NCBI GenBank assembly: GCA_043757545.1
Contig: JAYVPG010000069.1
Span: forward strand, 9,427 to 73,426
DNA length: 64,000 nt
Reading direction: 5' to 3'
Source of the DNA: Pseudobdellovibrionaceae bacterium
GTDB taxonomy: Bacteria; Bdellovibrionota; Bdellovibrionia; Bdellovibrionales; UBA1609
The notes under the pieces are model-generated. The model saw only the letters and a list, made by a program, of their open reading frames with translations, was not told the DNA's origin and did not search any database. Both the position numbers and the translations under genes were made by a program. Positions 2,023 to 41,891 of this stretch are shown here, in pieces (the first letter of the stretch is position 1; the number at the start of each line of letters is the position of its first letter).

Positions 2023-2120
2023 GTATCCTCCGTATTACATTCTGGCCGCGTGTACTTATAATCTTATCGGACGAAGGTCCTAATGACTTAGACAATTTTC
2101 TCAAATTCCAACCTTGAACC

Positions 2121-2164
2121 AGAGAAAAATAGAGCGTCTCAGGGTGAGACACTCACTCTGAGAC
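2121..2164 (-). terminator. Candidate rho-independent terminator downstream of the ppiD-like gene
   Basis: GTCTCAG-G-GTGAG / CTCAC-T-CTGAGAC hairpin at 2136-2164 (12 bp plus one mismatch, 3-nt loop). On the minus strand it is followed by GCTCTATTTTTCTCT. Confidence 0.5.
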
Positions 2165-3749: not shown

Positions 3750-3882
3750 TGTGTTTTCACTCCGTGGATTTGAATGCCCCCCAGATTCCAAAGTTTTCCG
3801 CAGTTTTTCAAGAAGATTGTTCCGTGTTTTCTCATTCGATCGACGCTGGACATTCGGCGCAAGTCGCCCTAGCCTATTTTCA

Positions 3883-24677: not shown

Positions 24678-24751
24678 GGTCATTTACAGCGCGCCAGGTC
24701 AGGCCTCGCGGCTTTTCGAATTCCCTAACATAATTAAAAAGTTAGGTAGAA

Positions 24752-25828: not shown

Positions 25829-28800
25829 ATATCACCCGACGCACGGTCGCTAAACTTATTCTATTGGCGGTTTCCGGCTTCTCCTTAGGCTTTGCCTACA
25901 ACTATCACCTGCCACGCATTGAAGCCTATTTGCTCGGTGAAGTTGAACGCGTGAGCCAGGAACGCTCTCCGATTCGCATTTGGGCTCAACGTTTACATTT
26001 TCACTTGGTCCCATTGGGCGTCAGTCTTGAAGAGGTTCGTCTTCTCGCGCAAGCGCCGTTGGATAAATATCTAGCTCCCGCGACGTTGCACGAAGTCGGC
26101 GCGCATTTGGCGCTCTTGCCGCTGCTGCGCGGAGAATTGCGTTTGAGTCAGGTGTATATTCGAAACTCTGAACTCAATTTGTTTTTGCGTTCCGATTTAT
26201 TTACCGATAAAAAAGGTCCGGAAAAGTTACGCCTTGATTTTGACCAACTCTACCAGCTCCCCATCGACGAATTCTTGCTCGAAGACGTGCAGATTCAAGG
26301 CCGTCTTGAGCCACAGAACGTAGTGTTTCGGGTTACAAATCTAAATGTCACCATTGAAAATCGCTACCGCTCGATTTTTGTCGAAGTGAACGCACCGCGA
26401 GTAATGGTGAAACCGAGCGGGCCAGTGCATCCTCTGAACGCTCAACTGGAACTTCGCACTCTAATTGAAGCCAGTGAAATGCAAGTTTCTGCGTTCAAGC
26501 TTAAAGCCGGCGATAGCTTTGTCGTGGCGAGTGGCAAATTCAATGGTGACCTGGCAGTCGGACGTTTTGATACGGGGATGTTTGAAGCGCGATCCAGACT
26601 GGATCTGGAGGATATCAATGCTTGGGAGAATATTTTTTATCTCAAGCCTCGCATTCCCCGATTGGAAGGCCGTGCCGAAATGGATCTGGGAATTGAGCTG
26701 CAAAAGAAGAAAGGCTACAAGTTCGACGTCGACGTGAAGACTACGGGAGTCGAAATAGATAAATATACCGTTGGTCAAATTCAAGGCCATCTCACCTCAA
26801 ATTTAAAATCGATTTCCAGCGATGTTATGCATTTGTCGAACAATTCAGGAAAAGTAGATCTAATAAAATTAACTATCAATCTTGAACCTAAGACGACGAT
26901 TTCGGCGGTCGTGAAGGTTCCGGGGATCGAAGTGCACGAGCTACTCGAGAACCTCGACGTCAAACATGTCCCTATTATGGTTCCTATCAAGGGCGAAGCG
27001 GAGTGTCTTGCGGTTCTTGGGGATTCACCTGAGGTGAACTGCAGCGGCGGGTTTAGTGCGGCAAAAATTCATGTCGACACAGGTCGTCCCAAGTTTTCAA
27101 CGATCGTCGAGGCCGTCGACGTACGCGCGAAAGGCCAGGTTAAAGTCACGGCAAAAGACGTGAGCTATAAGGGCGATCTGGCGCTTGGAAGAAATTCTGC
27201 CGGGCACTCCGATGGGGTTATCAACTACGACAAGGGATTTAAAATCAACTACCAAGCTGACAACTTGGATTTCGCCGAGGTGAAGAATCTCGTGAATCTA
27301 AAATTCGAAGGTGCGATGAAAATAAACGGGAGCACAACGGGAACTTCACATTGGGCGACCATCGACATGAGCATCGACGGCAAAGACCTCTGGCTCGAGG
27401 ACTATCCGCTTGGCTCTGCGACTTCAAAAGTTAACTACAAGGCCGGTCATTTGAATTTCAGTGCGCTGCAGGGGCAATTTGAAGTTACCCGCTATACAGG
27501 CCAGGTGGATTTGGATCTCGATAAGGATCGTATTCGCATGAGTGGTCAAATTCCGTTTATGGACCTTAAAGACGTGCAAAGTTTATTTAAACGCAAAGTC
27601 ACGCTACCTATTGCGATGTCGGGAACCGGAACTGGTCGACTTGAGGCTGAAGGACCGTTGCGTTTTCGCGATATGAGCTACGACTTTCGCTCCAGCTTCT
27701 TTCGCGGACAAATGGCTGGCGAGTCGTTCGATGAGTTTGTCTTTCAGGTCAAAGCCAAAGATGGATTGGTAAAATCGGAAAAAATCACGTTGTCTAAATC
27801 GAGTGGGGTTGTCGACGTCAAAGGTCAGATTACGCCCAAAGGAGAGATGGACTGCGTCGCCGTCGGCCGCAGCATGCGCCTTGAGCAATCGGAAAATATT
27901 TTGTCCATGGGTCTCGACTTGCAAGGCCTAGCCGATTTCACCGTTTTGGTGCGCGGCCAACTTCCCCATCCGCGGGTCGAGCTCAACGGGCGACTGAGCA
28001 AAGTGGTACTCGGTGACATCGCCGCCGAGGACTCGGTGTTCAAATTGAATTTTCTAGATGATCGCATGGAGGGTTCGGGTCAGTTTTTGGGCACAACTCT
28101 GGTCAGCGACTTCACGTTTCCCTATACGTCAGAAGCCCCGTTTCGTTTTAAATTAAAAACCAAAAAATGGGATTTCATTACGTTATTTTCTTTGCTCTCC
28201 CGATCCGCCCGACAAATCGACTTTAATACCTCTGTAACCATGGACGTCAACCTCAGCGCGGATCACGGCGGACTTTGGGCATCGAGTGGACGCGTGGATC
28301 TGTCGGAATTCGTGATCCGCAAGGGCAGCAAAAGTATGGCGGCTGAAAAGCCAATGATCTTTATCGTTAAGCAGGGCGTGGTGAACTCCGACAATAGCGT
28401 GATCTCCGCCGGTGACAGCTATTTGAAACTGGATGTCGCAGGCCTGACCAAAAATGCGCTGAATGCCTCGCTCAATGGCAAAGTGGATTTAAGTTTACTG
28501 GGCCTGTTCACGCCCTTTATTTCAGATCTGCGTGGCAATATGGCCGTCTCGATGGACCTGAAAGGGACAGCCGAGAAACCATTTGTCAGTGGCTCGGCCT
28601 ATATTGATCGCGGCTACGCCAAATTTTCCGATTTTTATCATCCCGTCTCGAACGTTCGCGCCGATATTTTATTTAACGACAATCAAATACTTTTGAATAC
28701 CATTCGCGGAGATATCGCCGGCGGAAAACTTTCCGGAGACGGCAAAATCACTTTTTCAGGAAAATCGCGACCCATTGATATTAAAGGCTCCTTCAGCGAC

Positions 28801-29814
28801 GTGAAACTCAATATTCCAGACGGCTTTCACACGCAAGGTTCCGGAACGGTGGCCATTCGTGGCGATGCCTTTCCCTACGTCATGGACCTGACCTATGACG
28901 TGAGCGGAGGCGAAGTCGTCTCGGAGTTTGGGGAAAACTCTTCAGGCAACTCGTCGGTAAAGGCAAGTGCATTTTTACCTCACTTTTTAGATCGCGAGAC
29001 TTTTCATCCATTTGATTTTTTACTCGATATCGGTTTAAAAAATCCAATTCTGGTGAACAATTCGCTAGTTCAGGCCTCGTGGACTGGACACATTCGGGCC
29101 AATGGAACTCCCGATCACCTGCTGCTCAATGGCTCACTCACTCCGGTCCCTGGTGGGAAGGTCTTTTTCAATGATGTCGCGTTCGATATTGGGTCGGCTT
29201 ATGTGGAATACTCGGGAAACCCGCCCGGCGATCCCAAAATTTATCTGACTGGAACTGCGCATGTGATCGAAAACGTAGTCGACGACAAGGGGGCAAGTGC
29301 CAACCAGTATGACGTGAGCTTGCTGGTTCAAGGACATGCGCAAGATCCACAGTTGAATTTGACCTCGCAGCCTCCGCTCGCCCAACGAGAAATCGTTTCA
29401 CTGCTCGCACTCGGAGTCACCGGTGCAGTTAGCGAGGAACGCAAAACCGGTGAGAATCAAACGGCAAACACATCTGCGGCGCTCGGCGCGGCCATTTTAA
29501 AAAAGGCCGGTGGCAAACGCGTGAAGGAATCATTCGGCGTTGACGTCAAACTGTCTTCGTCCCAATCCACAGTCGACACTGCTGCTTCTCCAAAAGTCAC
29601 TTTAAGCAAGCAGTGGACGCCAAAATTTGGCGCATCGGCATCGAGTACCCTCGAGTCAAATCCCAACAACAATGTGAAGCTCGAATACAAAATGAATAAG
29701 AGCGTTTCAGTGATCGGCTCATGGGACGGTCGAGAGACCCTGCATGACCAACAAAAAGATACGACTAAAAATATTTTGGGTCTAGACTTACAATACAAGG
29801 TGCCTTTTAAGTAA
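25801..29814 (+). CDS. tamB: TamB/AsmA-like translocation and assembly module protein (DUF490 C-terminus)
   Basis: 1337 aa. N-terminal anchor VAKLILLAVSGFSLGF, then a long beta-rich body. The C-terminal block YDVSLLVQGHAQDPQLNLTSQPPLAQREIVSLLALGVTG is typical of TamB. An Omp85 gene follows directly. Confidence 0.8.
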   Translation: MGGRRQLGINITRRTVAKLILLAVSGFSLGFAYNYHLPRIEAYLLGEVERVSQERSPIRIWAQRLHFHLVPLGVSLEEVRLLAQAPLDKYLAPATLHEVGAHLALLPLLRGELRLSQVYIRNSELNLFLRSDLFTDKKGPEKLRLDFDQLYQLPIDEFLLEDVQIQGRLEPQNVVFRVTNLNVTIENRYRSIFVEVNAPRVMVKPSGPVHPLNAQLELRTLIEASEMQVSAFKLKAGDSFVVASGKFNGDLAVGRFDTGMFEARSRLDLEDINAWENIFYLKPRIPRLEGRAEMDLGIELQKKKGYKFDVDVKTTGVEIDKYTVGQIQGHLTSNLKSISSDVMHLSNNSGKVDLIKLTINLEPKTTISAVVKVPGIEVHELLENLDVKHVPIMVPIKGEAECLAVLGDSPEVNCSGGFSAAKIHVDTGRPKFSTIVEAVDVRAKGQVKVTAKDVSYKGDLALGRNSAGHSDGVINYDKGFKINYQADNLDFAEVKNLVNLKFEGAMKINGSTTGTSHWATIDMSIDGKDLWLEDYPLGSATSKVNYKAGHLNFSALQGQFEVTRYTGQVDLDLDKDRIRMSGQIPFMDLKDVQSLFKRKVTLPIAMSGTGTGRLEAEGPLRFRDMSYDFRSSFFRGQMAGESFDEFVFQVKAKDGLVKSEKITLSKSSGVVDVKGQITPKGEMDCVAVGRSMRLEQSENILSMGLDLQGLADFTVLVRGQLPHPRVELNGRLSKVVLGDIAAEDSVFKLNFLDDRMEGSGQFLGTTLVSDFTFPYTSEAPFRFKLKTKKWDFITLFSLLSRSARQIDFNTSVTMDVNLSADHGGLWASSGRVDLSEFVIRKGSKSMAAEKPMIFIVKQGVVNSDNSVISAGDSYLKLDVAGLTKNALNASLNGKVDLSLLGLFTPFISDLRGNMAVSMDLKGTAEKPFVSGSAYIDRGYAKFSDFYHPVSNVRADILFNDNQILLNTIRGDIAGGKLSGDGKITFSGKSRPIDIKGSFSDVKLNIPDGFHTQGSGTVAIRGDAFPYVMDLTYDVSGGEVVSEFGENSSGNSSVKASAFLPHFLDRETFHPFDFLLDIGLKNPILVNNSLVQASWTGHIRANGTPDHLLLNGSLTPVPGGKVFFNDVAFDIGSAYVEYSGNPPGDPKIYLTGTAHVIENVVDDKGASANQYDVSLLVQGHAQDPQLNLTSQPPLAQREIVSLLALGVTGAVSEERKTGENQTANTSAALGAAILKKAGGKRVKESFGVDVKLSSSQSTVDTAASPKVTLSKQWTPKFGASASSTLESNPNNNVKLEYKMNKSVSVIGSWDGRETLHDQQKDTTKNILGLDLQYKVPFK

Positions 29815-32676
29815 ATGATGATCAATCGGATGGCTCTATTCACTGCGATGCTTTTCACCTTCCCAAGTTGGGCAACATCGCTGCATTTTCGCGATCTAAA
29901 TCCCAAAGACGAAGAGACCTTAAAGAAGGAATTGCCCCGTCTGTTCAAAGGTGAACCCGAACTTTCCACATTTGACGATGCGATTCGCATATTAATGCGC
30001 GACGGAACCTACGAAAATGTGTTTGTTGAGCGAGTCGGTGAAAACAGCTATGAGCTAATCGGCAAACCACTGCGCAAGGTGCAAGAGATTCGTTTTAGTG
30101 GCGTGCACGAGGTCTCGGAATCGGAACTTCGCGATTTGGTCGACTTTAAAACTGGTGATCGATTTGATCGCAAGCGAGCCGTGGCCTCTGGCGAGAAGAT
30201 GAAGAACTACTATGGTGAACATGGGTTCTTCAATACGGTCATTGAACTTGGCTTCCAGAAGACAGATTCCAAGGACATCCGCTTAGTCTTTGATGTTCAA
30301 GAAAGGCCTCCCTGCGTAATCAAGGGGCTGGAATTCGACACCCCCAATACCGACCTTAAGGCCCTCCTGCAAATGAAGTTCAAAAGTGTTTTGAATAGAC
30401 CGCTGACCACGGATCGAGTGCGGACAATGATGAAAGATCTCGATGAACAGCTAGTGGAAAGCCGCTACCTGGCCACCGAAGTCGTTGGACCAGACGCAAA
30501 ATACAATCCGGATAAAACCGAAGCTTACATGAAAATCGAAGTGCGTGAGCCGTACAAATCAGAATTCTATTTTGAGGGCAATAAGTACTTCACCTCTGTC
30601 GATGTTTATCGCGCACTCGATCTGCGCAATCGTGAGCGTAAAAACGTGGACCCCGCGAGTGAAGGTGCAGAACGCTTGCGTCGGGCTTATCTGGAGCGTG
30701 GATTTCCAAATATTCAAATCGAAACAAAGGTCAACAATGCAACAGGCTCGTTTCTTAAGCGGATTTACTACACGATCAATGAGGGTGCACGCGTTCGCAT
30801 TAGGGCCATCGAAGTGCAAGGGCGGATTTCGCGCGCCTCAAGTTACTATCAGGATTTTATCCTGAAAAATAGTTCCGATCTGATCGCGAAGGGGTTCTAC
30901 AATCGGCAGGATCTAGACAATGGCTTTAAAAATATGGTGACCGAACTACGCAATCAGGGATTTTTGCGCGCTCGCGTACTTTCTTCACGTATAGAGTACT
31001 CAGACAATAAAGACAAAGTGAGCGTTATTCTACTGCTTGAAGAGGGCCCACAGACTCAGATTCGGGGTTTAGATTTTACCGGCAATAAATTCTTCTCGAG
31101 CTTCGAACTCGCGAAAGTGACTGAGTTAGAGACCAACACCCCGCTACATTTAAACGATTTTGAACAAAGTCTGGAAAAGTTAAAGGCATTCTATCGCGAG
31201 CAGGGCTTTCTTGAAATGAAATTGCTCAACGAGAGTGAAGATCTCATCAAATACAACGACAAGGGAACCCAAGCGCGACTCACATTCCAAATCTACGAAG
31301 GTCCGCGCGTTCGCGTTCACGCCATCGTGGTGGACGGAAACCAAATGACTAAAACGTCGGTCATTTTGAAGGAGGCCGACTTCAGTTTGGGAGAGATCTT
31401 AACGCCACAAAAAATTGACGATGCGACAGCCCGCCTAAATAAATTGGGATTATTTTCTCGCGCCGACGTGCGCACTTTAGAAGAAGGGACAACGGTCAGC
31501 GAGCGCACTCTCGTAATCTCGGTTACCGAACGCGATCCCGGCGTATTTACGTTCGGTGGAGGCGTGACCAATGAGCGAAATCTGACTTTGCGCGGATACT
31601 CTGGCGCCAGCTACAACAACCTTTGGGGCACAGCCCGCGCCATCAGTCTACGCGGTGAATTGCGCTCGAATGTCGCCGAAGTAAAGTATCCTGAAAACGA
31701 AGTCACCGCCGGGTACTTGGAACCATTTTTGTTCAATACGCGCACTCGCGGACGGGTCAATCTGACGCGATCGGAATACGTCTTCGATTACGTCGCGCAG
31801 CCTGATCAATACACTGAGATCGTGGTTAAAAATCGAGTCGACCTCTTGATTGAGCGCGATCTCACTCAGCACACCAAACTCACCTACAAAGCCTGGAGTT
31901 TAGAGTCGCGTAAAGACTTTGAACGTTATGACCGCTGCCTTCCCGATCCGACTGCGCTAGCAGGCAGTCCCGAATCGAAATTCGATCCAAAGCGAGGACT
32001 ATGTTCACCCAAAACGATGCAAGTCGCGACCGTCGGTCCGCAACTCGACGTCGACTATCGCGACAATCCTTTTCTGCCCACTAAAGGATCCTTTACCCGA
32101 TTTTTCGTGGACTACTCGAACCCCGCAATCGCAAGCTCGAAAGGCGTTGAGTTTGTTAAAACAGATTTAGAAGTGCGCTACTATCAACGCCTGGGATCAC
32201 CCCGCTATATTTGGGCAAATGCGGTCCGAGGCGGCTACCTAAAAAACTTGAGTCGCGACGCCGACAGCGGAGTCCCGACCGATTGGGCCTATGTTCTCGG
32301 AGGCATTTACACGGTTCGTGGATTCGATTTATCGAGTCCCAAAGAGCGAATTCCCAAAGATGGGAATGGTGGATTCAAACTTGGTCAAGCCAACGAAAAG
32401 TTAATCAAAGACGAATCGAATTTCTATCTAGTCAAATCCGAATTTCGCTTTCCGATTTATGGCGATTTCGGTGGCGTGGTTTTCTACGATGGTGGTTCCG
32501 TGAAAATCGTCGGCTACAAGGGCTACGACCTCCATCGCCCCTATCGTGATGCGGCTGGTTTTGGGTTTCGACTCAATACTCCGGTCGGGCCGGTCGCACT
32601 TGATTTTGCATTTAAGATTCGCCCTGAAGAGGGTGAAGAGAGCATGCGCTTTCACTTTTCAATCGGAACTTTCTAG
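29815..32676 (+). CDS. bamA: Omp85-family outer membrane protein assembly factor (BamA-type, long POTRA region)
   Basis: 953 aa. Signal peptide, then a region of about 550 aa of repeated POTRA-like units (VQEIRFSGVHEVSESELRDLV; IKGLEFD; IRAIEVQGRI; IRGLDFTGNKFFS; VHAIVVDGNQMTK). The C-terminal barrel ends in ...MRFHFSIGTF*. Confidence 0.88.
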   Translation: MMINRMALFTAMLFTFPSWATSLHFRDLNPKDEETLKKELPRLFKGEPELSTFDDAIRILMRDGTYENVFVERVGENSYELIGKPLRKVQEIRFSGVHEVSESELRDLVDFKTGDRFDRKRAVASGEKMKNYYGEHGFFNTVIELGFQKTDSKDIRLVFDVQERPPCVIKGLEFDTPNTDLKALLQMKFKSVLNRPLTTDRVRTMMKDLDEQLVESRYLATEVVGPDAKYNPDKTEAYMKIEVREPYKSEFYFEGNKYFTSVDVYRALDLRNRERKNVDPASEGAERLRRAYLERGFPNIQIETKVNNATGSFLKRIYYTINEGARVRIRAIEVQGRISRASSYYQDFILKNSSDLIAKGFYNRQDLDNGFKNMVTELRNQGFLRARVLSSRIEYSDNKDKVSVILLLEEGPQTQIRGLDFTGNKFFSSFELAKVTELETNTPLHLNDFEQSLEKLKAFYREQGFLEMKLLNESEDLIKYNDKGTQARLTFQIYEGPRVRVHAIVVDGNQMTKTSVILKEADFSLGEILTPQKIDDATARLNKLGLFSRADVRTLEEGTTVSERTLVISVTERDPGVFTFGGGVTNERNLTLRGYSGASYNNLWGTARAISLRGELRSNVAEVKYPENEVTAGYLEPFLFNTRTRGRVNLTRSEYVFDYVAQPDQYTEIVVKNRVDLLIERDLTQHTKLTYKAWSLESRKDFERYDRCLPDPTALAGSPESKFDPKRGLCSPKTMQVATVGPQLDVDYRDNPFLPTKGSFTRFFVDYSNPAIASSKGVEFVKTDLEVRYYQRLGSPRYIWANAVRGGYLKNLSRDADSGVPTDWAYVLGGIYTVRGFDLSSPKERIPKDGNGGFKLGQANEKLIKDESNFYLVKSEFRFPIYGDFGGVVFYDGGSVKIVGYKGYDLHRPYRDAAGFGFRLNTPVGPVALDFAFKIRPEEGEESMRFHFSIGTF

Positions 32677-33461
32677 TCGGCAGTCTTCTCTAAAACACTT
32701 GAATATATCGGTCCACAGCCGCTGGTGTCGGGCAGAACAATCCACCCATGTCGCGTGGCCTCGCCCATCGCTTCAGCAACAGGAACTATGCGAAAAAGTC
32801 CCTCTCGACTCTTCAACAGCTTGTCGATCACACCATCGTTCTCAAGCGGAGAAATCGAACACGTTGAATAAACCGCACGGCCGCCGACGCGCAGACAATC
32901 GATCGCCGAACATAAAAGTGCATTCTGCCGCACAGCTAAGCGTTTACTTCCTTTCGCCGACCAGCGCGCGAGTTCTTTTGCTGATTGCAGAAGATGGCGC
33001 TCGCCCGAGCACGGCGCATCGACTAAGATTTTATCGAACTCACCGGGATAGCGGCGCCCCCAGAGACTGGCGTCGCCGCGACTAAATCGGACCTTGGCCA
33101 GAATCTCTTTGGGCAGACAGTCGTGAAACACCGCCTTCAGTCGAGTCACTCGAGCTGGAGAAAGGTCATTGCAATACCAGTCCGCCTGACCACGTAAAGT
33201 AAAGATCGCGCTCAATGCTTTGCCGCCTGGACTCGCGCAGAAGTCAGCCACGCGCTCGCCGGCTTGGATCTCTAGGAGTTTCACCGGGCCAAGTGAGGCC
33301 TCATCTAAAGTGTAGGCTTGATAGGGCTCGCCGAAAGGATTTTGCAGCGTGGCCTTGCGTGCAGAGCTCAATAGCGCCGAGCGCAGCGAGCTCCACCGAG
33401 CCCCATAAATCTCAGTGAAGTAGTTGTCGAATTCCTGCTCCGCAGACTCTCGTTTTTTCAC
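32673..33461 (-). CDS. RsmB/RsmF-like RNA m5C methyltransferase (NOL1/NOP2/Sun family)
   Basis: SAM and catalytic motifs: DFCASPGGKA, ILVDAPCSGE, VYSTCS. Confidence 0.85.
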   Translation of the reverse strand: MKKRESAEQEFDNYFTEIYGARWSSLRSALLSSARKATLQNPFGEPYQAYTLDEASLGPVKLLEIQAGERVADFCASPGGKALSAIFTLRGQADWYCNDLSPARVTRLKAVFHDCLPKEILAKVRFSRGDASLWGRRYPGEFDKILVDAPCSGERHLLQSAKELARWSAKGSKRLAVRQNALLCSAIDCLRVGGRAVYSTCSISPLENDGVIDKLLKSREGLFRIVPVAEAMGEATRHGWIVLPDTSGCGPIYSSVLEKTAD

Positions 33462-33589: not shown

Positions 33590-34456
33590 ATGCGCCGGCT
33601 GCTTGGTTCGTTGAGCCTACTAGGCGCCCTCTCACTCTCGCTTCATCTCGCTTTGGCCACGGAACGACCCAAGGTTATCTACGGTAAAGACAATCGACTC
33701 GACTACTACCAAGTCAGCGAAGACCCTATCAAACGGCTGGCGGATTCAACCGTTGCCCTGATTCGCGCTGCGGATTTAAGTACCATCGGGTCCGACACGG
33801 GAATTCACACTGTACCCTACGGGAGTAAAAACGCACTTTGCTCAAGTGAGCCATTTTACAATCAAGGAACGGCCGCCAATTGCTCTGGATTTCTGGTCTC
33901 ACCCGATCTCGTTGTCACTGCCGGGCACTGCATGTTCAGTCAAACTCAATGCGACGAAACTCGTTTTGTCTTTGGCTTTCAAATTCAGAAAGAAAACATC
34001 ATGCCGACATCTGTTCCGACCTCTTTGGTTTTCAAATGTAAAGAGCTGGTGAAAACGACTTCGCGGGTGAAGGATGATGATTTTGCAGTGATCCGCTTAG
34101 ATCGGCCAGTGACTCACACGCTCCCACTTCCCTATCGACAGATTGGTTCGGTGGCAGTCGGAGATAGTCTATCGGTGATCGGATATCCTTATGGACTGCC
34201 GGTGAAGATTGCCGGAGGCGCACAAGTGCGAGCGCTTCAGGCAAAATATCTAACTGCAAATCTTGACACCTACAATGGAAACTCGGGTTCGCCGGTGTTC
34301 AATGCGGTCACTGGAAATGTGGAAGGAATTTTGGTCAACGGAGAAAAAGATTTTCAACTGCAAAATGGCTGCTATGTCTCAAATCTTTGCCCCGACGACG
34401 GCTGCAAAGGCGAAGACGCGACTCTGATTGAGCGCGTCCTACCATTCTTAAAATAA
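33590..34456 (+). CDS. Secreted trypsin-like serine protease (S1 family)
   Basis: Trimmed to ATG 33590, with AGGAGGG upstream. Signal peptide MRRLLGSLSLLGALSLSLHLALA. Catalytic triad context: VTAGHC, DFAVIRLD, GNSGSPV. Confidence 0.85.
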   Translation: MRRLLGSLSLLGALSLSLHLALATERPKVIYGKDNRLDYYQVSEDPIKRLADSTVALIRAADLSTIGSDTGIHTVPYGSKNALCSSEPFYNQGTAANCSGFLVSPDLVVTAGHCMFSQTQCDETRFVFGFQIQKENIMPTSVPTSLVFKCKELVKTTSRVKDDDFAVIRLDRPVTHTLPLPYRQIGSVAVGDSLSVIGYPYGLPVKIAGGAQVRALQAKYLTANLDTYNGNSGSPVFNAVTGNVEGILVNGEKDFQLQNGCYVSNLCPDDGCKGEDATLIERVLPFLK

Positions 34457-34457
34457 T

Positions 34458-35936
34458 CTACGGACAACCGTGGTACTTTCCGGCTTTGCAATGTTGGCTA
34501 ATAATCTGGGTGCTCAGCGCAAACAGACTGGGTCCATATTTGCCTTGCACATCAGAGGCTGGACCACGACTTGCACTAGCTGCTGACGTCGTACCACCAG
34601 TGCCCGCCACTTCACGACCACTGCCGACTGAACTGACTTGGTAGTTCGAACCACCGGCACTCGCGCCCGCAGCAGAAGAGCTGCTGCCTAGACTCGCGCC
34701 TTCACGAACCGCGGCTCCCGCTACAGATCGTACAACCGTGGCACCGCCACTCACTGCCACGCCCGAGCCCGGAACAACAACGGGAGCTCCACTCACTCCA
34801 CCGCCGCCGAGCGGTACTCCGGAGGCTGCCGCGGATGAACCAGGACTTCCTCCTCCAGGCAAAATCACGGGAATTCCAGTCGCCACTTGGCCGGGAACCT
34901 GAGCTCCGCCGCCATTGGCATAGTTAGGATTCGAAAACGCCGGATCGGTAGGACAAGAGACCTTTGCGTTGGCGATTTGATCCGGAGAATTTTGCGCCAA
35001 ACAAAGTGCCGGATTAGCGACACAGGCTTGGCTTTGACTCGCGCTCAAATGTAAACAGCTCGGACATGATTCACGTCCCGAAGTCTTACAGAAATTTCCC
35101 GCAACTATATTTTGGCAATAGGGAGTCCCAAGTCCCGTGCCACTTCCCGCCAAATTGATTTGCACAACCGCGCCACTACCCAACTTCTTTTCTGTCTGCG
35201 TTCCTGTAGTCGTCGTCCCCGCACAATACCGTTCGTTGAACGCAGAGCAGTTCGCAGAGACGGTTGTTGAGGTCGCACTACTTGCACACGTCGACGATAG
35301 ATATTGATCACAATCTGAATATTTCGCGGCATCTCTTTTACTGCAATCAATGGAACCGTTGGGTTGCAACGCTCCACCTTCGTCTTTATCTTTATTCGCA
35401 TTCTTGCCCAACATGTAGCCGAGCAGACCAGCGCCCGCCGCCATAGCTAAGGGCGCGATCATTCCCATTCCGTCTCCAGACCCTGAATTGGTCGCCGTAT
35501 TTCCCGCATCCGTCGACTGCTGATTGAAGGCATCGGACTGACCGCCAAAATCATCGGCGCGAGCTTGGACGGCATCTTCGCAACTCGAAACATCCTTTTG
35601 GCTACATTTCGTTTTGCATTCAGACTTTTTGCCCTCACAAGCCTTGGCAGCATCAGCAAACCCTTTGGCACCAGCAGCGGTGCTTCCCGATAGGCCCGCG
35701 GCGGCGCCGTTCATGCCTTGTTTTGCGGCGTCGCCCATACCAGCCTGAACGCCAGCCGCGGTAGCTCCGCCAAGTTTATCGCACTCTTTGATAATCGGTT
35801 TTGCGCAACTCGGAGCCTCGGCATTGGCGCCGTTCTCCGCGAGTGGCGCGATCGCCATCGCAAAAGCGACAGCCAAGTGAATTGAAAAACGTTGGGGATG
35901 GAACATGGCACACCTCTTTTTATTTAAAGACTTCAT
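34458..35936 (-). CDS. Secreted cysteine-patterned, Gly/Ser/Ala-rich protein (paralog B)
   Basis: ATG 35936 overlaps the upstream TGA (ATGA). The signal-like N-terminus ends ...PLAENGANA-EA. I count about 20 Cys after the signal. It shares with paralog A the blocks RYC, CPSC.H.S, DPAF.NP and the C-terminal GPS.F..S..IS..C..G...(H/G)CP. It has long GGxS/A tracts. Confidence 0.7.
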   Translation of the reverse strand: MKSLNKKRCAMFHPQRFSIHLAVAFAMAIAPLAENGANAEAPSCAKPIIKECDKLGGATAAGVQAGMGDAAKQGMNGAAAGLSGSTAAGAKGFADAAKACEGKKSECKTKCSQKDVSSCEDAVQARADDFGGQSDAFNQQSTDAGNTATNSGSGDGMGMIAPLAMAAGAGLLGYMLGKNANKDKDEGGALQPNGSIDCSKRDAAKYSDCDQYLSSTCASSATSTTVSANCSAFNERYCAGTTTTGTQTEKKLGSGAVVQINLAGSGTGLGTPYCQNIVAGNFCKTSGRESCPSCLHLSASQSQACVANPALCLAQNSPDQIANAKVSCPTDPAFSNPNYANGGGAQVPGQVATGIPVILPGGGSPGSSAAASGVPLGGGGVSGAPVVVPGSGVAVSGGATVVRSVAGAAVREGASLGSSSSAAGASAGGSNYQVSSVGSGREVAGTGGTTSAASASRGPASDVQGKYGPSLFALSTQIISQHCKAGKYHGCP

Positions 35937-37297
35937 TTTAATTTTCCAGGGCAATGTAAAAACCGACCATTGCGACATCGGGCTGAAATCACTTCACTCG
36001 AAATCATAAACACACTTGGACCGGTTCCCTTGGAGGCGACATCCGTCACACTCTGCTGCATCCCATTGTCGCCGACCGACGCCATCGCGCGTTTACCTCC
36101 GGCAAAGGATGCGGAAAACCGACTATTGTCTCCGCCAGAGTCTGAGTTCTGCGCGGAGCCTCCGCCGCCACCACCACCGTCGACGCCAAGTCCAGAAACC
36201 GCGTGGAAGGCACCGTCATTCGCCGCATTCGCATTCTTATTACCGGCCGCACCAGTCGCCGCAACGGAAGCGCTCGATCCCATTCCTGAACCACCACCCG
36301 AGCCGCCGCCTCCGCCGCCCGCACCGGCGACAGCACTCCCAAGCTTGTTCGCGATTTCAGGATTTGCAAACGCCGGGTCATTGGCGCAGATCTCGGGAAG
36401 CTGAACTCCAGGAGCAGGCGATTCATGTGAGCAGCTTGGACATTTCTGTGCCTCAGGATTGCGTTCACAAAAATCACTGGCGATTGTCGTCGTACAAAAT
36501 GAACTCGTTTTTCCTTCACCGGCCTTGAGTGCACCCGCAGAACTTTGCCCCGAGCTCCCCTGCCCTTTGCAGTAGCGCGCCGTGAAGCTTTCGCAAACCG
36601 GAGTTCGCTTGGCGTTGCCAACACAATTTTTCATCAACTGATCTGCACATTGATCAAACAGGTAGGCGTTTTCACTATCGCAACTGGTTTTCGTATTCAC
36701 TGCCGCCGTCGGCATCACATCCTTGGCAGGAAGTTCAGGAGTCGTCGTTGATTCTGGAGCAGGACTGTCCGCGGCTGGTGAAGCCTGAGGCATCTGTGGC
36801 GCTTGCGCCTGTTGACTGGAGTCTTTTGCTTGATCCGAATTTTTACTTAGACCTTTTGCGGCCGCCTCGTGCTTCGCGATTTCAGGATCGAGTTTTGAAT
36901 CACAACTTTGTTGGATATTTTTTGCGGTCGCGCTGTCTGGACTGCAGGTCACGGCGGCACAGGGTGAATCACAATAATTTTGTTTAGCCTGGCGACAGGA
37001 ATTCGCGGCAGCTTGGGCGGCTTGGGCACCTGAGGACGCGACCCCACTTAAATTTTGCCCATTTGATGATATTCCGCCAGTCGGTGCGGCTTGGCTTGCG
37101 GTCGCGGCCATCTTACTTTCAATGCCCTCAGCAAGCTTACCCGCCGCTTTGCACGCGGGCTCCGCCTTCTGACTTTCCTGCCGACACTTTTGTAGTGGAC
37201 CCGGATCACAGCCCATTGCGTGCGCATCCGGCACACAAAACGACGTGAGCAAAAGGCTCAATAGAATAAGGGCGGGCCGTTGGGACAAAACCGGCAT
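35933..37297 (-). CDS. Secreted cysteine-patterned, Gly/Ser/Ala-rich protein (paralog A)
   Basis: Signal peptide MPVLSQRPALILLSLLLTSFCVPDAHA. I count about 20 Cys after the signal. Poly-Gly tracts (GGGGGGSGGGSG, GGGGGGGS). The C-terminal GPSVFMISSEVISARCRNGRFLHCP matches paralog B. Confidence 0.7.
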   Translation of the reverse strand: MPVLSQRPALILLSLLLTSFCVPDAHAMGCDPGPLQKCRQESQKAEPACKAAGKLAEGIESKMAATASQAAPTGGISSNGQNLSGVASSGAQAAQAAANSCRQAKQNYCDSPCAAVTCSPDSATAKNIQQSCDSKLDPEIAKHEAAAKGLSKNSDQAKDSSQQAQAPQMPQASPAADSPAPESTTTPELPAKDVMPTAAVNTKTSCDSENAYLFDQCADQLMKNCVGNAKRTPVCESFTARYCKGQGSSGQSSAGALKAGEGKTSSFCTTTIASDFCERNPEAQKCPSCSHESPAPGVQLPEICANDPAFANPEIANKLGSAVAGAGGGGGGSGGGSGMGSSASVAATGAAGNKNANAANDGAFHAVSGLGVDGGGGGGGSAQNSDSGGDNSRFSASFAGGKRAMASVGDNGMQQSVTDVASKGTGPSVFMISSEVISARCRNGRFLHCPGKLK

Positions 37298-37501
37298 ATC
37301 TATATATTATGCCTCTATAAATACCGAGTTCTCGAGGCAAAATCGAAGTCTCTTCCGAAGATCAAATACTTACGGAGGTCGCCGTCTCACCTTGAGACAT
37401 GACGCAGCGGCACTCAAGCGGGGGCGACAGCAACTTTATTTGAGGTATAAGTCATTTTGATCGGACCTTGACGGTGCTGAAATCGGCTTCAAATTTCAAG
37501 T

Positions 37502-39895
37502 ATGAAGAATCAAAATATTTTTCCCACAACAGCAATACCCGTCATACCGATGCGGAATATGGTTATTTTTCCGGGTCAAACTCTACCAATCGTGGTCGGC
37601 CGCGCACGCAGCCGAAACGCATTCGAAGCCGCGCTGAAAGCCGACTCTGAATGGGTTTTATTTGTGGCGCAAAAACACGATCTCGAAAATCTCGAGCCCG
37701 GGCCAGAAGATTTATTTAAAGTCGGAGTCTTGGCACGCGTGGATCGACATGAGGTCACGCCCGAGCGCGCCTATCAATTGGTCATCACCAGTCAAATGCG
37801 TTTTGCGGTGAGCCGCTATGAAGAGGGCAAAGGATATTTGCAAGCCTACGGGGTTCCCCAAGACGACATTCGCGACGTGGATCCAGAAGCACTCGCCAGT
37901 CTCATGCGTAACGCGAAAAATTTAGGCAGCGAAATTTTCGAATTGCTTCCGGCCAACTTAGAGCGACTTTCCAATCTGGTTATGGCGATTGAAGATCCGA
38001 TCTTGCTCACGCATGTCGTTTCACAAAACCTCGACCTTAAGGTGAGTAAAAAGCAGGAACTGCTTGAAATGACGTCACTAAAGAGTCGCCTTCTTTCTCT
38101 TTTGGAGCAGATGGTGACGTTTCGCGAGCAGCTTAAACTGCAACGCGAGTTGAATCAGAAACTGACCTCACGCATGGGCAAACAACATCGCGATGCGATC
38201 CTGCGCGAACAGATCCGCACGCTACAAGAGGAGCTCGGCGAAAAATCCGGCAAGGACAAGAGCGACTACCACGAAAAAATTGAAAATGGCGGCATGCCCG
38301 AAGATGTGAAAAAGGCGGCACTCGAACAGCTAGATCGTTTGGAGTCTCTTGGCCAACAATCACCTGAAACTTCAGTGATCCGAAACTATCTCGACCTACT
38401 CGTAGCCCTGCCGTGGGACGTGAGCTCCAGCGCCGATATTGATTTGGAACAAGCCCGCCGTGTGCTCGATGGCGATCACTACGGGCTTGAGAAAATCAAA
38501 ACTAGAATTTTACAACATTTGGCGGTTTTGAAAATCAAACAGAAAAAAGGCAGCATCCTACTCTTTGTCGGCCCCCCGGGAGTGGGTAAAACCAGCTTAG
38601 GCAAAAGTATCGCCAAAGCCATGAAACGCAAATTTGTACGCGTCAGTCTCGGTGGAGTCCGCGACGACGCCGAGATTCGCGGGCATCGCCGCACCTATGT
38701 GGGCGCACTCCCTGGACGCATTGTCGATGGGATCAAACGCGCTGGTGAAAACAATCCCGTGTTTATGCTCGATGAAATCGACAAAATGACTCGCGGTTGG
38801 GGCGGCGATCCGGCCGCAACGATGCTCGAAGTTTTAGATCCGGAACAAAATAATAAATTCCTGGATCACTACCTCGACGTGCCCTTTGATTTATCCAATG
38901 TGTTTTTTATCGGCACGGCCAATACGCTCGATACGATTCCGCCCGCACTTTTGGATCGTATGGAGGTCATTCACCTCTCCGGCTACACCACGCCCGAGAA
39001 ACTGCATATCTCGCGCACTCATTTGGTGCCGAAACAGCTCGAAGACCACGGTGTAAAACCTGAGCAACTGGAGATCAGCGAAGCCGCACAGCTGCGCATG
39101 ATCAGCGCCTACACGAGAGAAGCGGGCGTGCGCGAACTGCAACGTCATGTCGGCGCCGTCGTGCGCGCAAAAACCGAAAAAGTTTTGACCAATACGAGCG
39201 CTGAACCCGTGCGTGTGGACGTCGCGGACTTGGATGAGATATTGGGCGCCGAGAAGTTTATTCAAGAGCAGGTCGGTGCGGAAAATCCTCCGGGAGTGGT
39301 GACGGGCCTGGCGTGGACCCCGCTCGGCGGTGAAATTTTATTTATCGAATCGAGCCATATGCCGGGCAAAGGTGGGCTCTTGCTCACTGGACAGTTGGGC
39401 GAGGTGATGCGCGAGAGCGCTCAGATCGCAATGACTTTGGTGCGCTCGCGCCTTGCTGGCGCGATAGCGAACTATTCCTATGACCGCGAAGATGTCCATC
39501 TGCATGTTCCTGCCGGTGCCGTCCCCAAAGACGGACCGTCGGCCGGAGTGGCCATGCTCTCGGCCATTGCGAGTCTGCTGCTCAAGCGGTCCGTGAGCTC
39601 AAAGATCGCCATGACTGGGGAAATCACCTTGCGAGGTGCGGTGACCCCGGTGGGTGGAATCAAAGAAAAAGTTTTGGCCGCGCATCGGGCCGGAATTAAG
39701 AAAGTGCTCTTGCCGAAACGCAATGAGCGCGACCTGAAAGAGGTCCCGGATGAAGTTAAAAAGGACCTGGAGTTTGTTTTTGCAGAGACCGTCGAAGAGG
39801 CTCTTCACCATATATTGGGTTTAGAGCCCGCCGATTGGGCTGCACTCAAGACAACACCACCATCTGGATTGACTGCGGACCTGGATAGTCATTAG
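37502..39895 (+). CDS. lon: ATP-dependent Lon protease
   Basis: LON N-domain, Walker A GPPGVGKTS, protease Ser in PKDGPSAGVAM and Lys in KEKVLAAHRAGIK. 797 aa. Confidence 0.95.
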   Translation: MKNQNIFPTTAIPVIPMRNMVIFPGQTLPIVVGRARSRNAFEAALKADSEWVLFVAQKHDLENLEPGPEDLFKVGVLARVDRHEVTPERAYQLVITSQMRFAVSRYEEGKGYLQAYGVPQDDIRDVDPEALASLMRNAKNLGSEIFELLPANLERLSNLVMAIEDPILLTHVVSQNLDLKVSKKQELLEMTSLKSRLLSLLEQMVTFREQLKLQRELNQKLTSRMGKQHRDAILREQIRTLQEELGEKSGKDKSDYHEKIENGGMPEDVKKAALEQLDRLESLGQQSPETSVIRNYLDLLVALPWDVSSSADIDLEQARRVLDGDHYGLEKIKTRILQHLAVLKIKQKKGSILLFVGPPGVGKTSLGKSIAKAMKRKFVRVSLGGVRDDAEIRGHRRTYVGALPGRIVDGIKRAGENNPVFMLDEIDKMTRGWGGDPAATMLEVLDPEQNNKFLDHYLDVPFDLSNVFFIGTANTLDTIPPALLDRMEVIHLSGYTTPEKLHISRTHLVPKQLEDHGVKPEQLEISEAAQLRMISAYTREAGVRELQRHVGAVVRAKTEKVLTNTSAEPVRVDVADLDEILGAEKFIQEQVGAENPPGVVTGLAWTPLGGEILFIESSHMPGKGGLLLTGQLGEVMRESAQIAMTLVRSRLAGAIANYSYDREDVHLHVPAGAVPKDGPSAGVAMLSAIASLLLKRSVSSKIAMTGEITLRGAVTPVGGIKEKVLAAHRAGIKKVLLPKRNERDLKEVPDEVKKDLEFVFAETVEEALHHILGLEPADWAALKTTPPSGLTADLDSH

Positions 39896-39931
39896 AGTCA
39901 TTCTTTTTAACCTTTACCTGAGGTCTTAAGA

Positions 39932-40465
39932 ATGAAGCAAATGACTCCCAAGTCCTGGTTGCTGGCGGCGTTAATGATCTTAGCTGGAGTCGTGAGCCGC
40001 TGGGTTCCGCATCCTGCGAATTTTTCAGCCCTGCTTGCGGTTGCGGTTTATGCGGGCTTTGCGTTCCCCGGTACCATTGCGCTTGGCATCCCCTTAGCGA
40101 GCGCCTTTCTGGGCGACTTATTTCTTGGATTTCATGACTTGATGGCGGTTGTTTACCTAAGCCTTCTAGCACTGGTGGCGATCGGCCGTTGGCTCCCCGA
40201 TCTCGATATGAGCGCACGCAAGCTGCCAAGCTGGATGCTCACCGGATTGCTCGGCTCGATACTTTTCTTTATTACGACAAACCTCGCGGTCTGGTGGACC
40301 TCGGGCATGTACCCCCACACTCAAGAGGGATTGACGGCTTGTTTTATCCTCGCCATTCCGTTCTTCCATAATTCGGTGGTTTCAACTTGGCTGTTTATGG
40401 GTGCTTTTGAGCTCGTTCGCCACTTTGCCTTTGCCGGTGAGCGCGAAGCCAGTCACCAAAGCTAA
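39932..40465 (+). CDS. Small polytopic membrane protein (possibly DUF6580/ECF-S-like transporter component)
   Basis: 177 aa with 5-6 hydrophobic helices. The N-terminal SRWVPHPANFSALLAVAVYAGFAF resembles the R..P.NF.P..A pattern I recall for DUF6580. The family call is tentative. Confidence 0.35.
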   Translation: MKQMTPKSWLLAALMILAGVVSRWVPHPANFSALLAVAVYAGFAFPGTIALGIPLASAFLGDLFLGFHDLMAVVYLSLLALVAIGRWLPDLDMSARKLPSWMLTGLLGSILFFITTNLAVWWTSGMYPHTQEGLTACFILAIPFFHNSVVSTWLFMGAFELVRHFAFAGEREASHQS

Positions 40466-40540
40466 TCAGTTGGCTTTCAGATTTGAGGGGCCTTAGCACT
40501 TCTGTTGTGCATTGCTTCAGAAACTGTCATCTTGGCCCCT

Positions 40541-41077
40541 ATGTTTTACAAGCGAAGCGCCCTACTTTTGCCCACACTCTTGCTCGGCCCAGTGATTCCC
40601 CATGAATCCTATGCGGCGATTTATTTAAGCGAAGCCCAGGCGGCCTCGGTGATTTTCCCCGGCGAAACGTTTTCCAAAATTACTCTGCAGCTCTCTTCAG
40701 AGGAGCAAAGCAAAATCAAATCGGCCGCGGCGGATGACTCAGTCCATTCTGAAGCCCAGATATTCAAGGCCAAATCCGGTGACTGCGTGTTTATCGACCG
40801 CGTGATTGGAAAACATGAATTGATCACTTATGCCGTCGGCATTTCCCGGCAGGGAAAAATTAAGGGAGTCGAAATTCTCGAGTACCGTGAGTCCTATGGC
40901 CATGAGATCCGCGGCGAAAAGTGGCGCGCCCAGTTTATCGGTAAGGATGGTAAATCGTCACTGAAGATGAATGACGACATAATGAATATCAGTGGCGCCA
41001 CACTCTCGTCGGCCCACATCACCAGCGGCGTACGCCGCCTTTTGCAAACTTATGATGTTATCAAAGCAAGAATTTAA
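40541..41077 (+). CDS. Secreted FMN-binding domain protein (NqrC/RnfG-type FMN_bind)
   Basis: Trimmed to ATG 40541. Signal peptide MFYKRSALLLPTLLLGPVIPHESYA. The C-terminal ISGATLSSAHITSGV contains the SGAT flavinylation-type motif. Confidence 0.7.
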   Translation: MFYKRSALLLPTLLLGPVIPHESYAAIYLSEAQAASVIFPGETFSKITLQLSSEEQSKIKSAAADDSVHSEAQIFKAKSGDCVFIDRVIGKHELITYAVGISRQGKIKGVEILEYRESYGHEIRGEKWRAQFIGKDGKSSLKMNDDIMNISGATLSSAHITSGVRRLLQTYDVIKARI

Positions 41078-41891
41078 ACGCGCACGCCCGGCACTCGGCA
41101 CCATTCTCACCTTCCGCTTAGAGGGGCCGACGACTTTGGACACTGTGCAAGTCGACGAGCAGCTCTCACTTGCTTTTGATTTCTGCGAGGACTTGGAACA
41201 GAAATTTTCTAAGTTTCGTGAAATGTCCGATGTCAGTCGTTTGAATCAGGCATCACTCGCTACGGATATTCCAGTAAGTCCTGAGTTTGCTCGGATTTTT
41301 CCATTGGCTGAAAAGATTTGGCAGGTCTCGGAAGGCGCGTTTGATCCGTTTGCCGGTCTCTCTCTCTCTAGAGGCGACTGCCCGATCCTTTTACGCGCGG
41401 ACGGAACGCAACATTTCGCCCGCCGAACACGCGATTGCCAGTTGGACCTTTCTGGAATTGCCAAGGGATTTATTGTCGATGAACTCACTGATTTTCTACT
41501 GGCACGACTGCCGGGACTCTCAGGCGTGGTAAATGCCGGTGGGGATTTGCGATTTTTCGCCACTCAACAACGACTGGCCGACATTCGCCTGACGACCCCC
41601 GAGCGAAAATTTCAGCGACTAAGTATTAATCAAGACGGACTGGCCACTTCGGCACAGACTCCGGCTAGCGATGATCCGCTCTCCACAACGCAGTATCATC
41701 AAACTCCCCGCAGTGGTCTTGGTGCGACCGATGCGGTGACTGCGGTCGCTGGCACTTGTGCGCTGGCCGACGCTCTGACCAAGGTCGGCTGGTTTGCACC
41801 CGCTTCCATCTGCCAACGCACGGTCGAAAAATTTGCCGCCGAGATCTTAGTTTTTGACTCCACGGGCATTGTTCGCGAGAAATTTATTTAG
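41052..41891 (+). CDS. apbE: ApbE-family FAD:protein FMN transferase
   Basis: Start at ATG 41052 (MMLSKQEFKRARPALGTILTF). The LSGIAKGFIVDE and VNAGGDLRFF blocks are typical of ApbE. It overlaps the FMN-binding gene by 26 nt. Confidence 0.8.
   Translation: MMLSKQEFKRARPALGTILTFRLEGPTTLDTVQVDEQLSLAFDFCEDLEQKFSKFREMSDVSRLNQASLATDIPVSPEFARIFPLAEKIWQVSEGAFDPFAGLSLSRGDCPILLRADGTQHFARRTRDCQLDLSGIAKGFIVDELTDFLLARLPGLSGVVNAGGDLRFFATQQRLADIRLTTPERKFQRLSINQDGLATSAQTPASDDPLSTTQYHQTPRSGLGATDAVTAVAGTCALADALTKVGWFAPASICQRTVEKFAAEILVFDSTGIVREKFI

Follow-up and report, generated by a model that had tools for sequence, protein, structure and literature searches.

A stretch of 64,000 nucleotides from a Pseudobdellovibrionaceae bacterium (assembly GCA_043757545.1, contig JAYVPG010000069.1, positions 9,427 to 73,426 of the forward strand), hereafter called the window, carries on its minus strand two adjacent genes, here named A and B, which encode large Cys-rich proteins. 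The original prediction, made from the letters of this DNA, had presented them as translationally coupled tandem paralogs, exported, rich in Cys and Gly/Ser/Ala tracts, and of unrecognised family. The two minus-strand open reading frames (ORFs) are indeed where it had placed them, and the comparisons reported here suggest that A and B arose by an ancient duplication within a protein family undescribed so far and known only from Bdellovibrionales, an order of predatory bacteria. Regarding their role, the reading preferred here, to which we give roughly an even chance, is that of an exported, disulfide-stabilised pair of the envelope or cell surface, of which B would be membrane-associated. The features of the two genes are listed below, where AF2 stands for an AlphaFold2 model and pLDDT for its predicted local distance difference test score.

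35933-37297, minus strand: gene A, the A-type paralog, 454 residues plus stop (from the ORF list; A-type homologs P0002-P0005)
37217-37297, minus strand: signal peptide of A, residues 1-27, MPVLSQRPALILLSLLLTSFCVPDAHA followed by MG (by eye; N-terminal signal peptide in homologs)
36803-37201, minus strand: three-helix bundle of A, residues 33-165, 8 Cys (AF2)
36686-36802, minus strand: Pro/Ala/Gln-rich linker of A, residues 166-204 (alignment columns 200-300; low pLDDT)
36329-36685, minus strand: Cys-rich helical domain of A, residues 205-323; 10 Cys are invariant, among them those of CPSC
36017-36328, minus strand: Gly/Ser/Ala-rich disordered spacer of A, residues ~324-427 (pLDDT below 50)
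35936-36016, minus strand: C-terminal tag of A, residues 428-454, GPSVFMISSEVISARCRNGRFLHCPGKLK, helix plus Cx7C
34458-35936, minus strand: gene B, the B-type paralog, 492 residues plus stop from the ATG at 35936 (23 close homologs)
35911-35917, minus strand: Shine-Dalgarno-like AGAGGTG (GAGGTG at 35916-35911) before an alternative start of B, the in-frame ATG at 35906-35904
35814-35936, minus strand: signal peptide region of B, residues 1 to ~41 (by eye; aligned homolog signal peptides)
35481-35813, minus strand: three-helix bundle of B, residues 42-152, Cys 44, 52, 100, 107, 111 and 119 (AF2)
35397-35480, minus strand: glycine-zipper hydrophobic helix of B with its flanks, residues 153-180, GDGMGMIAPLAMAAGAGLLGYMLGKN
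34899-35381, minus strand: Cys-rich helical domain of B, residues ~186-346, 12 Cys
34566-34898, minus strand: Gly/Ser/Ala/Val/Pro-rich disordered spacer of B, residues 347-457 (pLDDT below 50)
34461-34565, minus strand: C-terminal tag of B, residues 458-492, GPASDVQGKYGPSLFALSTQIISQHCKAGKYHGCP

The paralogy of A and B is supported by a BLASTP alignment at E=5e-13, with 27% identity over ~300 residues, which encloses every one of the blocks that had been listed as common to both and in the same order, namely RYC, FC..CPSC, DPAF.NP and the C-terminal module. Counterparts of gene A are the upstream family genes in the related loci L003, L006, L008, L010, L012, L013 and L017; its protein is devoid of the internal hydrophobic segment and its tail ends in ...LHCPGKLK. 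Several ORFs of 140-190 residues run across gene A, antisense to it or in a different frame (35970-36624, both strands); these Pro/Arg-rich ORFs are almost certainly misread Gly/Ala/Ser codons and not genes.

For both genes the translation start deserves attention. The stop codon of A and the start codon of B overlap as ATGA at 35933-35936 (...aaaATGAag...), as originally described, within a longest B frame that spans 34458-35978 (minus strand), and B certainly lies close behind A, 0-26 nt apart. While the overlap is real and the tight spacing makes translational coupling of B to A likely, coupling through the ATGA itself remains unproven because of the second, Shine-Dalgarno-preceded start at 35906, which yields 482 residues and is used by public gene calls (P0006). 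As for A, the public call P0001 (427 residues) begins at Met28 and thereby loses the signal peptide encoded at 37217-37297; since the A-type homologs P0002-P0004, as well as those in L006 and L008, retain this signal peptide, the long start without a Shine-Dalgarno sequence is the better one.

The AF2 models of B and A give the same plan, namely a signal peptide, a three-helix bundle, a linker, a Cys-rich helical domain (hereafter C-domain), a Gly/Ser-rich disordered spacer, and a C-terminal tag in which a Cx7C pair closes an amphipathic helix. The bundle of A comprises helices 33-69, 76-114 and 121-165, modelled at a pLDDT of mostly 87-98 with dips to 78 (loop 71-80) and 74 (C-terminal end), and it retrieved only generic helical bundles in Foldseek (E>0.3); the bundle of B comprises helices 43-71, 74-102 and 116-151, at a pLDDT of ~81-96 between residues 41 and 140 that drops towards the C-terminal end. 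After the bundle the two paralogs diverge, the Pro-rich linker of A standing in the alignment where B has its glycine zipper, in a linker of low model confidence around residues 153-185. The C-domain is modelled at a pLDDT of ~72-95 (in B mostly 83-95, with 76 near residues 311-320), with a small beta-hairpin in B and a B-specific insert, ACxxNPALCLAQNSP. The pLDDT of B then falls below 50 over residues 351-466, a region in which the spacer keeps the short motifs LPxVVLPQS, REG and RExAS according to column statistics, and no DNA tandem repeats were found behind the Gly tracts. The tag returns as helix 429-442 in A (pLDDT ~79; tag hidden Markov model (HMM) E=2.4e-16) and helix 471-484 in B (pLDDT ~80; E=1.3e-20), its two Cys being located at this C-terminal helix and just past it.

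Regarding export, A and B both show the features of Sec-type signal peptides, namely a basic n-region, a hydrophobic core of 10-15 residues and a small-x-small site, so that both proteins are predicted to be exported, as had been proposed. These peptides were judged by eye and with a crude script rather than with SignalP; they are kept in the A-type as well as the B-type subfamily, and 110/140 homologs pass the script, the failures looking like truncated gene calls. Cleavage of B is likely to occur after ANA, near residue 39. No lipobox (L-x-x-C) is present in A or B, the signal peptides of which end in sites of the AxA type recognised by signal peptidase I.

Disulfide stabilisation of both proteins is likely, as judged from the pattern of Cys conservation and from the models. 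Each protein contains 21 Cys, 20 of which lie after the signal peptide, a recount that agrees with the earlier one, and the number per module is even (6+12+2 in B, 8+10+2 in A); with the crude signal-peptide cut, the total is even in 102/138 homologs. In an alignment of 140 sequences, 11 Cys columns are invariant and 7 more hold Cys in >=90% of sequences. Where Cys columns vary, they do so pairwise (52/100, r=0.88; 89/137, r=0.92; 94/134, r=1.0), and the members of each pair sit on neighbouring antiparallel helices of the predicted bundle; paired gain and loss of Cys, together with this fit to the bundle, therefore lend independent support to the model and to disulfide bonding. The co-occurrence of columns 305/312 is uninformative, because both lie inside the B-specific insert. 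The 10 Cys of the C-domain and both Cys of the tag are invariant in A-type proteins, and the same 10 are invariant in B-type proteins; since A-type proteins possess a signal peptide and no hydrophobic segment, their C-domain is presumed to be exported. The C-terminal motif (Y/F)GPS(L/V)FxxSSxxIxxRCxxGxLxxC is kept to the last residues of the same alignment (including F472, C483 and C491), so that neither the Cys pattern nor the C-terminal module can be regarded as low-complexity noise.

The extent of the family was established by an exhaustive profile search against 1.84 billion protein cluster representatives, which returned 331 clusters at E<=1e-3 and 172 at E<=1e-30. Word-seeded searches brought 4 A-type and 23 B-type relatives, a genome scan with a pattern from the B-only alignment recovered just 7 loci, and a third homolog search, with a profile of 140 sequences, added nothing new. 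The few matches with a named source all belong to metagenome-assembled genomes of Bdellovibrionales/Pseudobdellovibrionaceae, the latter being, in the NCBI taxonomy, a family that includes Bdellovibrio. HMM scans of loci found A followed by B in tandem in the window and in L003-5, L006, L008, L010, L012, L013, L014 and L017, that is in at least 9 lineages.

No characterised family accounts for the pair, which is consistent with its description as unrecognised. Full-length A and B had no match in Pfam at E<=1 and none in PADLOC, their sole match in NCBIfam reached 12.6 bits against a cut-off of 1700, and no significant match by sequence, profile or Foldseek fold was obtained in the PDB. The C-domain of B had no match by Foldseek, in the PDB or in Pfam, a C-domain profile likewise had none in the PDB and Pfam, and Pfam searches with 20 C-domain sequences produced scattered single matches, all at E>0.03; because no solved structure matches, the C-domain may represent a new fold. 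No similarity of A or B to a toxin family was found, no inhibitor family was matched in the Pfam searches, and Rfam gave nothing credible at the locus. The family and the fold of the C-domain are unclassified; the workings suggested by the sequences, namely Sec export, disulfide stapling and a glycine zipper, are known principles. A lead towards Lipocone/Wnt, from a paper dealing with Bdellovibrio and cysteine-rich proteins, proved irrelevant. A general sorting signal was also considered for the tag; the tag HMM detected no protein outside the family in 284 kb of sequence, a sample too small to dismiss such a role.

Two candidate regulatory elements precede gene A:

37306-37312, minus strand: GCATAAT box resembling a -10 element, ending 8 nt before the ATG of A, without a Shine-Dalgarno sequence
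37384-37398, no strand: palindrome GTCTCA-N3-TGAGAC (15 bp) in the intergenic region between the divergent lon and A genes, candidate operator

The box and the absence of a Shine-Dalgarno sequence had both been noticed beforehand and are borne out here, with comparative support for the idea of a leaderless transcript: GCATAAT (GCATACT in L003) stands 6-8 nt before the A-type ATG, again with no Shine-Dalgarno sequence, in the window, L003, L006, L008, L010, L012 and L014, and the pattern occurs a single time in the 64-kb window. This arrangement supports an A mRNA that would be leaderless or near-leaderless. A sigma-54 reading of the TGGCAT box was discarded for want of a -12 element.

The palindrome occurs twice in the window against 0.06 occurrences expected. 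With up to one mismatch allowed, 24/25 occurrences in 291,568 nt are situated in front of family genes, ahead of A and, if B possesses an upstream region of its own, also ahead of B, and almost every family gene is preceded by one (among them L002 9866; L003 6117; L006 8431 and 9935; L008 3245 and 4468; L010 494 and 1992; L011 3469; L012 1843; L013 605; L014 851; L017 6170 and 7786; L020 1405). Comparison of the loci shows conserved half-sites around a variable spacer, with no compensatory changes, and the estimated spacing between the centre of the palindrome and the -10 box falls into groups near 48, 67 and 80 nt. Because the half-sites are kept, the spacer varies without compensatory changes and the site lies between divergent genes, the palindrome points to a protein-binding operator, and it is probably that of a dedicated regulator. 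An intrinsic terminator or RNA hairpin was rejected for the copy upstream of A, which is located between divergent genes and shows neither a T-run nor compensatory changes.

The second copy in the window (2136-2150) is found ~45 nt upstream of a FliA-type promoter, CTAAG-N16-CCGATA (2065-2091, minus strand). The gene after this promoter (199-2022, minus strand) encodes a subtilisin-like protease of unusual composition, in which a Fervidolysin-type prodomain and an S8 domain are followed by a hydrophobic stretch and, at the C-terminus, by a PilZ domain. With a T-run behind it, this copy may double as the terminator of the upstream PpiD-like gene.

FliA-type sites, T(A/T)A(A/G)G-N16-CCGATA, also precede B-type genes of relatives, namely in L002 (9957-9983), L006 (9950-9976), L010 (2007-2033), L016 (10070-10096) and L017 (7949-7975), and another (L020 3209-3235) lies just downstream of a family gene. 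They agree with the attack-phase consensus of the FliA (sigma-28) factor of B. bacteriovorus, TTAAG-N16-CCGATA (PMC3627812). In the relatives with FliA sites, A and B are set apart by an intergenic region; such sites are missing from the window and from the remaining loci with a tight operon.

The hydrophobic Gly/Ala-rich stretch reported in the middle of B is kept in the B-type homologs, from which 88 segments could be compared. Their composition (A 26%, G 22%, M 20%, L 18%, I+V+F 4%, hence A+G+M 68%) is atypical for inner-membrane helices, and their mean Hessa insertion free energy is +2.7 kcal/mol (range +1 to +5). A small-xxx-G-xxx-small motif ([GAS]xxxGxxx[GAS]) is found in 75/88 segments, with a conserved GAAxG core, a Gly-rich flank upstream, and KK with acidic residues downstream. 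Homolog segments show weak similarity to the Gly-zipper_Omp and glycine zipper 2TM domains, 3/6 of them scoring 16-22 bits with Gly-zipper_Omp (PF13488) against a cut-off of 25; the window's own B segment matched neither PF13488 nor PF05433. As far as these sequence properties go, the segment would be a glycine zipper that, once exported, contacts a membrane or mediates oligomerisation. The B-type segments (for example AMGAGLIGAVAGGLLGYMLGKK in P0007) also closely resemble the hydrophobic core of the mammalian prion protein, a likeness that presumably reflects convergent glycine-zipper chemistry.

The genes that surround the pair are the following:

24111-33461: left flank, with EF-P, a TPR protein, TamB (1337 residues), TamA/Omp85 (953 residues) and an RsmB/F-like methyltransferase
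33590-34456, plus strand: exported trypsin-like serine protease, convergent neighbour of B (Pfam Trypsin and Trypsin_2, E=2.8e-16)
37502-41891: right flank, with Lon, DUF6580, an FMN_bind protein and ApbE

The common gene order of the loci is EF-P, TPR protein, TamB, TamA, in most loci an RsmB-like methyltransferase, the trypsin-like protease (convergent to B), B, A, in some loci a nucleoside transporter, and Lon. The order EF-P-TamB-TamA-Lon is kept across the Bdellovibrionales loci compared; DUF6580 recurs in L003 only, and FMN_bind and ApbE are found in the window only. The protease gene is adjacent and convergent to B in every locus examined. Together with the dedicated, conserved palindrome upstream, this invariable neighbour corrects the view that the system consists of only two genes. 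The stop codons of the protease and B are 1 nt apart in the window (34456-34458), the two genes overlap by 4 nt in L003-L005 (L003 8846-8849), and a gap of ~137 nt separates them in L008; in the window and L003 the 3' ends of their transcripts must overlap, because no terminator fits between the two genes there. The protease carries TAGHC and GNSGSP motifs, and the Asp that precedes the catalytic Ser by 6 residues is invariant in 12/12 orthologs and aligns with Asp189 of a venom protease, as the S1 Asp. No type I secretion system was found among the neighbours in the window and 12 loci, and neither an immunity gene nor a dedicated secretion system lies near A and B in the loci compared. Processing of the family proteins by this protease at a candidate Arg or Lys-Arg ~50 residues before the C-terminus was set aside as a minor possibility, Arg being found in just 73/131 aligned sequences and the protease gene having no palindrome upstream.

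In the preferred reading, A and B would be wholly exported across the inner membrane, and the 20 Cys of each would form about 10 disulfides that yield protease-resistant folded modules. Once exported, B would join a membrane or oligomerise through its glycine zipper, in the manner of glycine-zipper outer-membrane lipoproteins and unlike a classical inner-membrane anchor, with A remaining soluble, and the two would act jointly at the envelope or cell surface, where their homologous bundles or their C-terminal tags might link them. Their biochemical activity may be structural, adhesive or membrane-active. At the level of expression, a dedicated DNA-binding regulator would recognise the palindrome, the mRNA of A would be leaderless or nearly so, translation of B would be coupled to that of A, and B would in many relatives additionally be controlled by an attack-phase FliA promoter. 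A role in the free-swimming, prey-seeking cell is suggested because of these promoters before B in relatives.

Several observations do not sit easily with this reading. Directly behind the B segment come a conserved Lys-Lys and a charged patch (K+R per 12 residues, 3.2 downstream vs 0.5 upstream), and the segment has a Kyte-Doolittle mean of 1.3-1.9; it looks like a stop-transfer anchor, which would place the C-domain in the cytoplasm. In the window itself neither A nor B has a FliA promoter nearby, even with 1 mismatch. In addition, A is missing in L002 and none was detected in L011, each having a single B. Lastly, the neighbourhood of ~20 kb is syntenic across the order; since the whole region is kept together, the adjacency of the protease and TamAB genes is no proof of a functional link.

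Besides this reading of an envelope or surface pair, it is conceivable that A and B are secreted predation effectors, with B inserting into the prey envelope as a pore-forming or permeabilising protein, A acting as its soluble partner or chaperone, the disulfides guarding both against the predator's own proteases, and the trypsin-like protease possibly activating them by a cut in the spacer. Glycine zippers do drive membrane insertion and toxicity in the two-protein bacteriocins CdzC/CdzD (PMC5380434), the host lineage is predatory, the B-type genes of relatives have attack-phase FliA promoters, the pair combines one hydrophobic and one non-hydrophobic paralog, the adjoining exported protease has an invariant S1 Asp, and Arg or Lys-Arg is frequent ~50 residues before the C-terminus. 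We nevertheless consider such effectors unlikely, as there is one short zipper helix only, in one of the two proteins, the Arg site is present in only 73/131 aligned sequences, the protease gene is without the family palindrome, no toxin family shows similarity, and immunity gene and dedicated secretion system are both lacking nearby.

A more specific proposal, which we hold to be quite doubtful, is a contact-dependent two-component predation device, in which B would be displayed on attack-phase cells, protected by its disulfides, and would drive its zipper helix into the membrane of the prey, retention or release of B would fall to A and the tag, and the regulator of the palindrome would switch the device. 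Of equal standing is a variant drawn by analogy, in which the pair would contribute to a disulfide-stabilised envelope layer of the extracellular form, like the chlamydial cysteine-rich outer-membrane complex.

The topology of B raises a further alternative, which stays a rival because of the KK flank: B could be a type I inner-membrane protein with a periplasmic bundle, a Gly/Met-rich membrane-spanning helix and a cytoplasmic C-domain, spacer and tag, the Cys of which would be metal-bound or reduced, A then being a periplasmic ligand or partner of the bundle of B and the pair a trans-envelope sensor or tether. The segment has a suitable length of 19-22 residues, the hydrophobicity given above and an uncharged Gly-rich flank before the KK, AF2 predicts it as a helix, and motifs of the GxxxG type are typical of dimerising transmembrane helices. 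Taken as a whole, topology and partnership together, this arrangement is improbable, for the 10 Cys of the C-domain, like the two of the tag, are also invariant in exported A-type proteins without a hydrophobic segment, where the domain works in the oxidising periplasm, there is a single CxxC with Cys spacing unlike that of zinc-finger sites, and the helix contains hardly any I, V or F, with a predicted insertion free energy that is positive throughout (+1 to +5).

The neighbouring protease could also be given the central place, A and B being its regulators, inhibitors or dedicated substrates in a module for self-protection or maturation. Protease inhibitors commonly contain disulfide-rich domains, and the convergent protease gene adjoins B in all loci examined, from the 4-nt overlap to the gap of ~137 nt. 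Such a module is highly improbable: in a syntenic 20-kb region adjacency is weak evidence, A and B are far larger than known inhibitors and match no inhibitor family, and the palindrome was not found before the protease gene. As for a low-complexity artefact, in which the ORFs would be chance reading frames in G+C-rich, Gly-codon-rich DNA, long Gly/Ser/Ala tracts and several overlapping antisense ORFs of 140-190 residues do occur, but the idea has virtually no chance of being right and is refuted by conservation, with hundreds of homologs keeping invariant Cys and motifs at 25-45% identity, folded modules modelled confidently by AF2, and synteny and promoter elements retained.

Among described systems, the envelope and surface reading of the pair finds a parallel in the SlyB/Pcp and YfgH-type glycine-zipper outer-membrane lipoproteins (PF13488, PF05433), which are exported envelope proteins with an oligomerising Gly/Ala-rich small-xxx-small helix on the membrane and with which B-type segments share their 16-22 bits against PF13488. 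The differences are that the scores remain below the 25-bit cut-off, that there is no lipobox, that one helix replaces the hairpin of two transmembrane segments, and that the zipper of B is embedded in a multi-domain Cys-rich protein of 490 residues, A having none. The CdzC/CdzD proteins of Caulobacter are 84-86 residues long, exported by a type I system, made mostly of zipper repeats, accompanied by an immunity gene and involved in contact killing (PMC5380434), and Cdz-like systems are defined by proteins of 5-10 kDa, zippers that contain neither Cys nor Pro, an immunity gene, and a type I secretion system encoded no more than 10 kb away (PMC5380434). The likeness lies in two adjacent related genes with surface or membrane products and glycine-zipper chemistry, and it would suit a predator; A and B differ by their 454 and 492 residues, their Sec signal peptides, their 20 Cys, the single zipper confined to B, and the lack of a type I secretion system or immunity gene nearby.

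Other parallels concern the disulfides. The chlamydial OmcA/OmcB are Cys-rich envelope proteins in which disulfides stabilise the extracellular form, in a life cycle that alternates between an extracellular non-growing and an intracellular growing stage. They have no sequence or Pfam relationship to A and B in the Pfam searches; the even number of Cys per module suggests intramolecular pairs in A and B rather than an intermolecular lattice. In twin-CX9C (CHCH) hairpins, helices with two Cys about two turns apart are disulfide-stapled to a neighbouring helix; B shows Cx7C at 44/52, 111/119, 209/217, 230/238 and 483/491, with pairings that are predicted, yet the spacing, the compartment (bacterial periplasm) and the fold are different, with no match to CHCH in Pfam. 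The Rana box of frog peptides and the D-region of pilins consist of an amphipathic helix followed by a disulfide-closed C-terminal loop, and here the resemblance is formal, the element of A and B being the tail of a large protein and restricted to family members in the 284 kb scanned.

Very few Bdellovibrionales-specific envelope or surface proteins have a known function, and such proteins must underlie prey recognition, attachment and entry. A family that is conserved across the order, absent from curated libraries, exported and disulfide-rich by prediction is a tractable candidate for a predation-specific envelope component, and it comes with two regulatory handles, namely a -10 box abutting the start codon and a private 15-bp palindrome. 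Should it prove only a housekeeping envelope protein of the order, its value would mainly be the definition of a new family and the corrected start site.

Some loci depart from the simple tandem. L008 contains a third paralog (3360-4451), which has a Pro/Gly-rich linker of great length and lacks the C-terminal tag. In L016 (8001-11735), two B-like copies enclose a small HTH_37 gene (9747-10004), and L015 (2-2454) holds two copies of a third subtype, the tag of which is extended to ...NNCGPRS...

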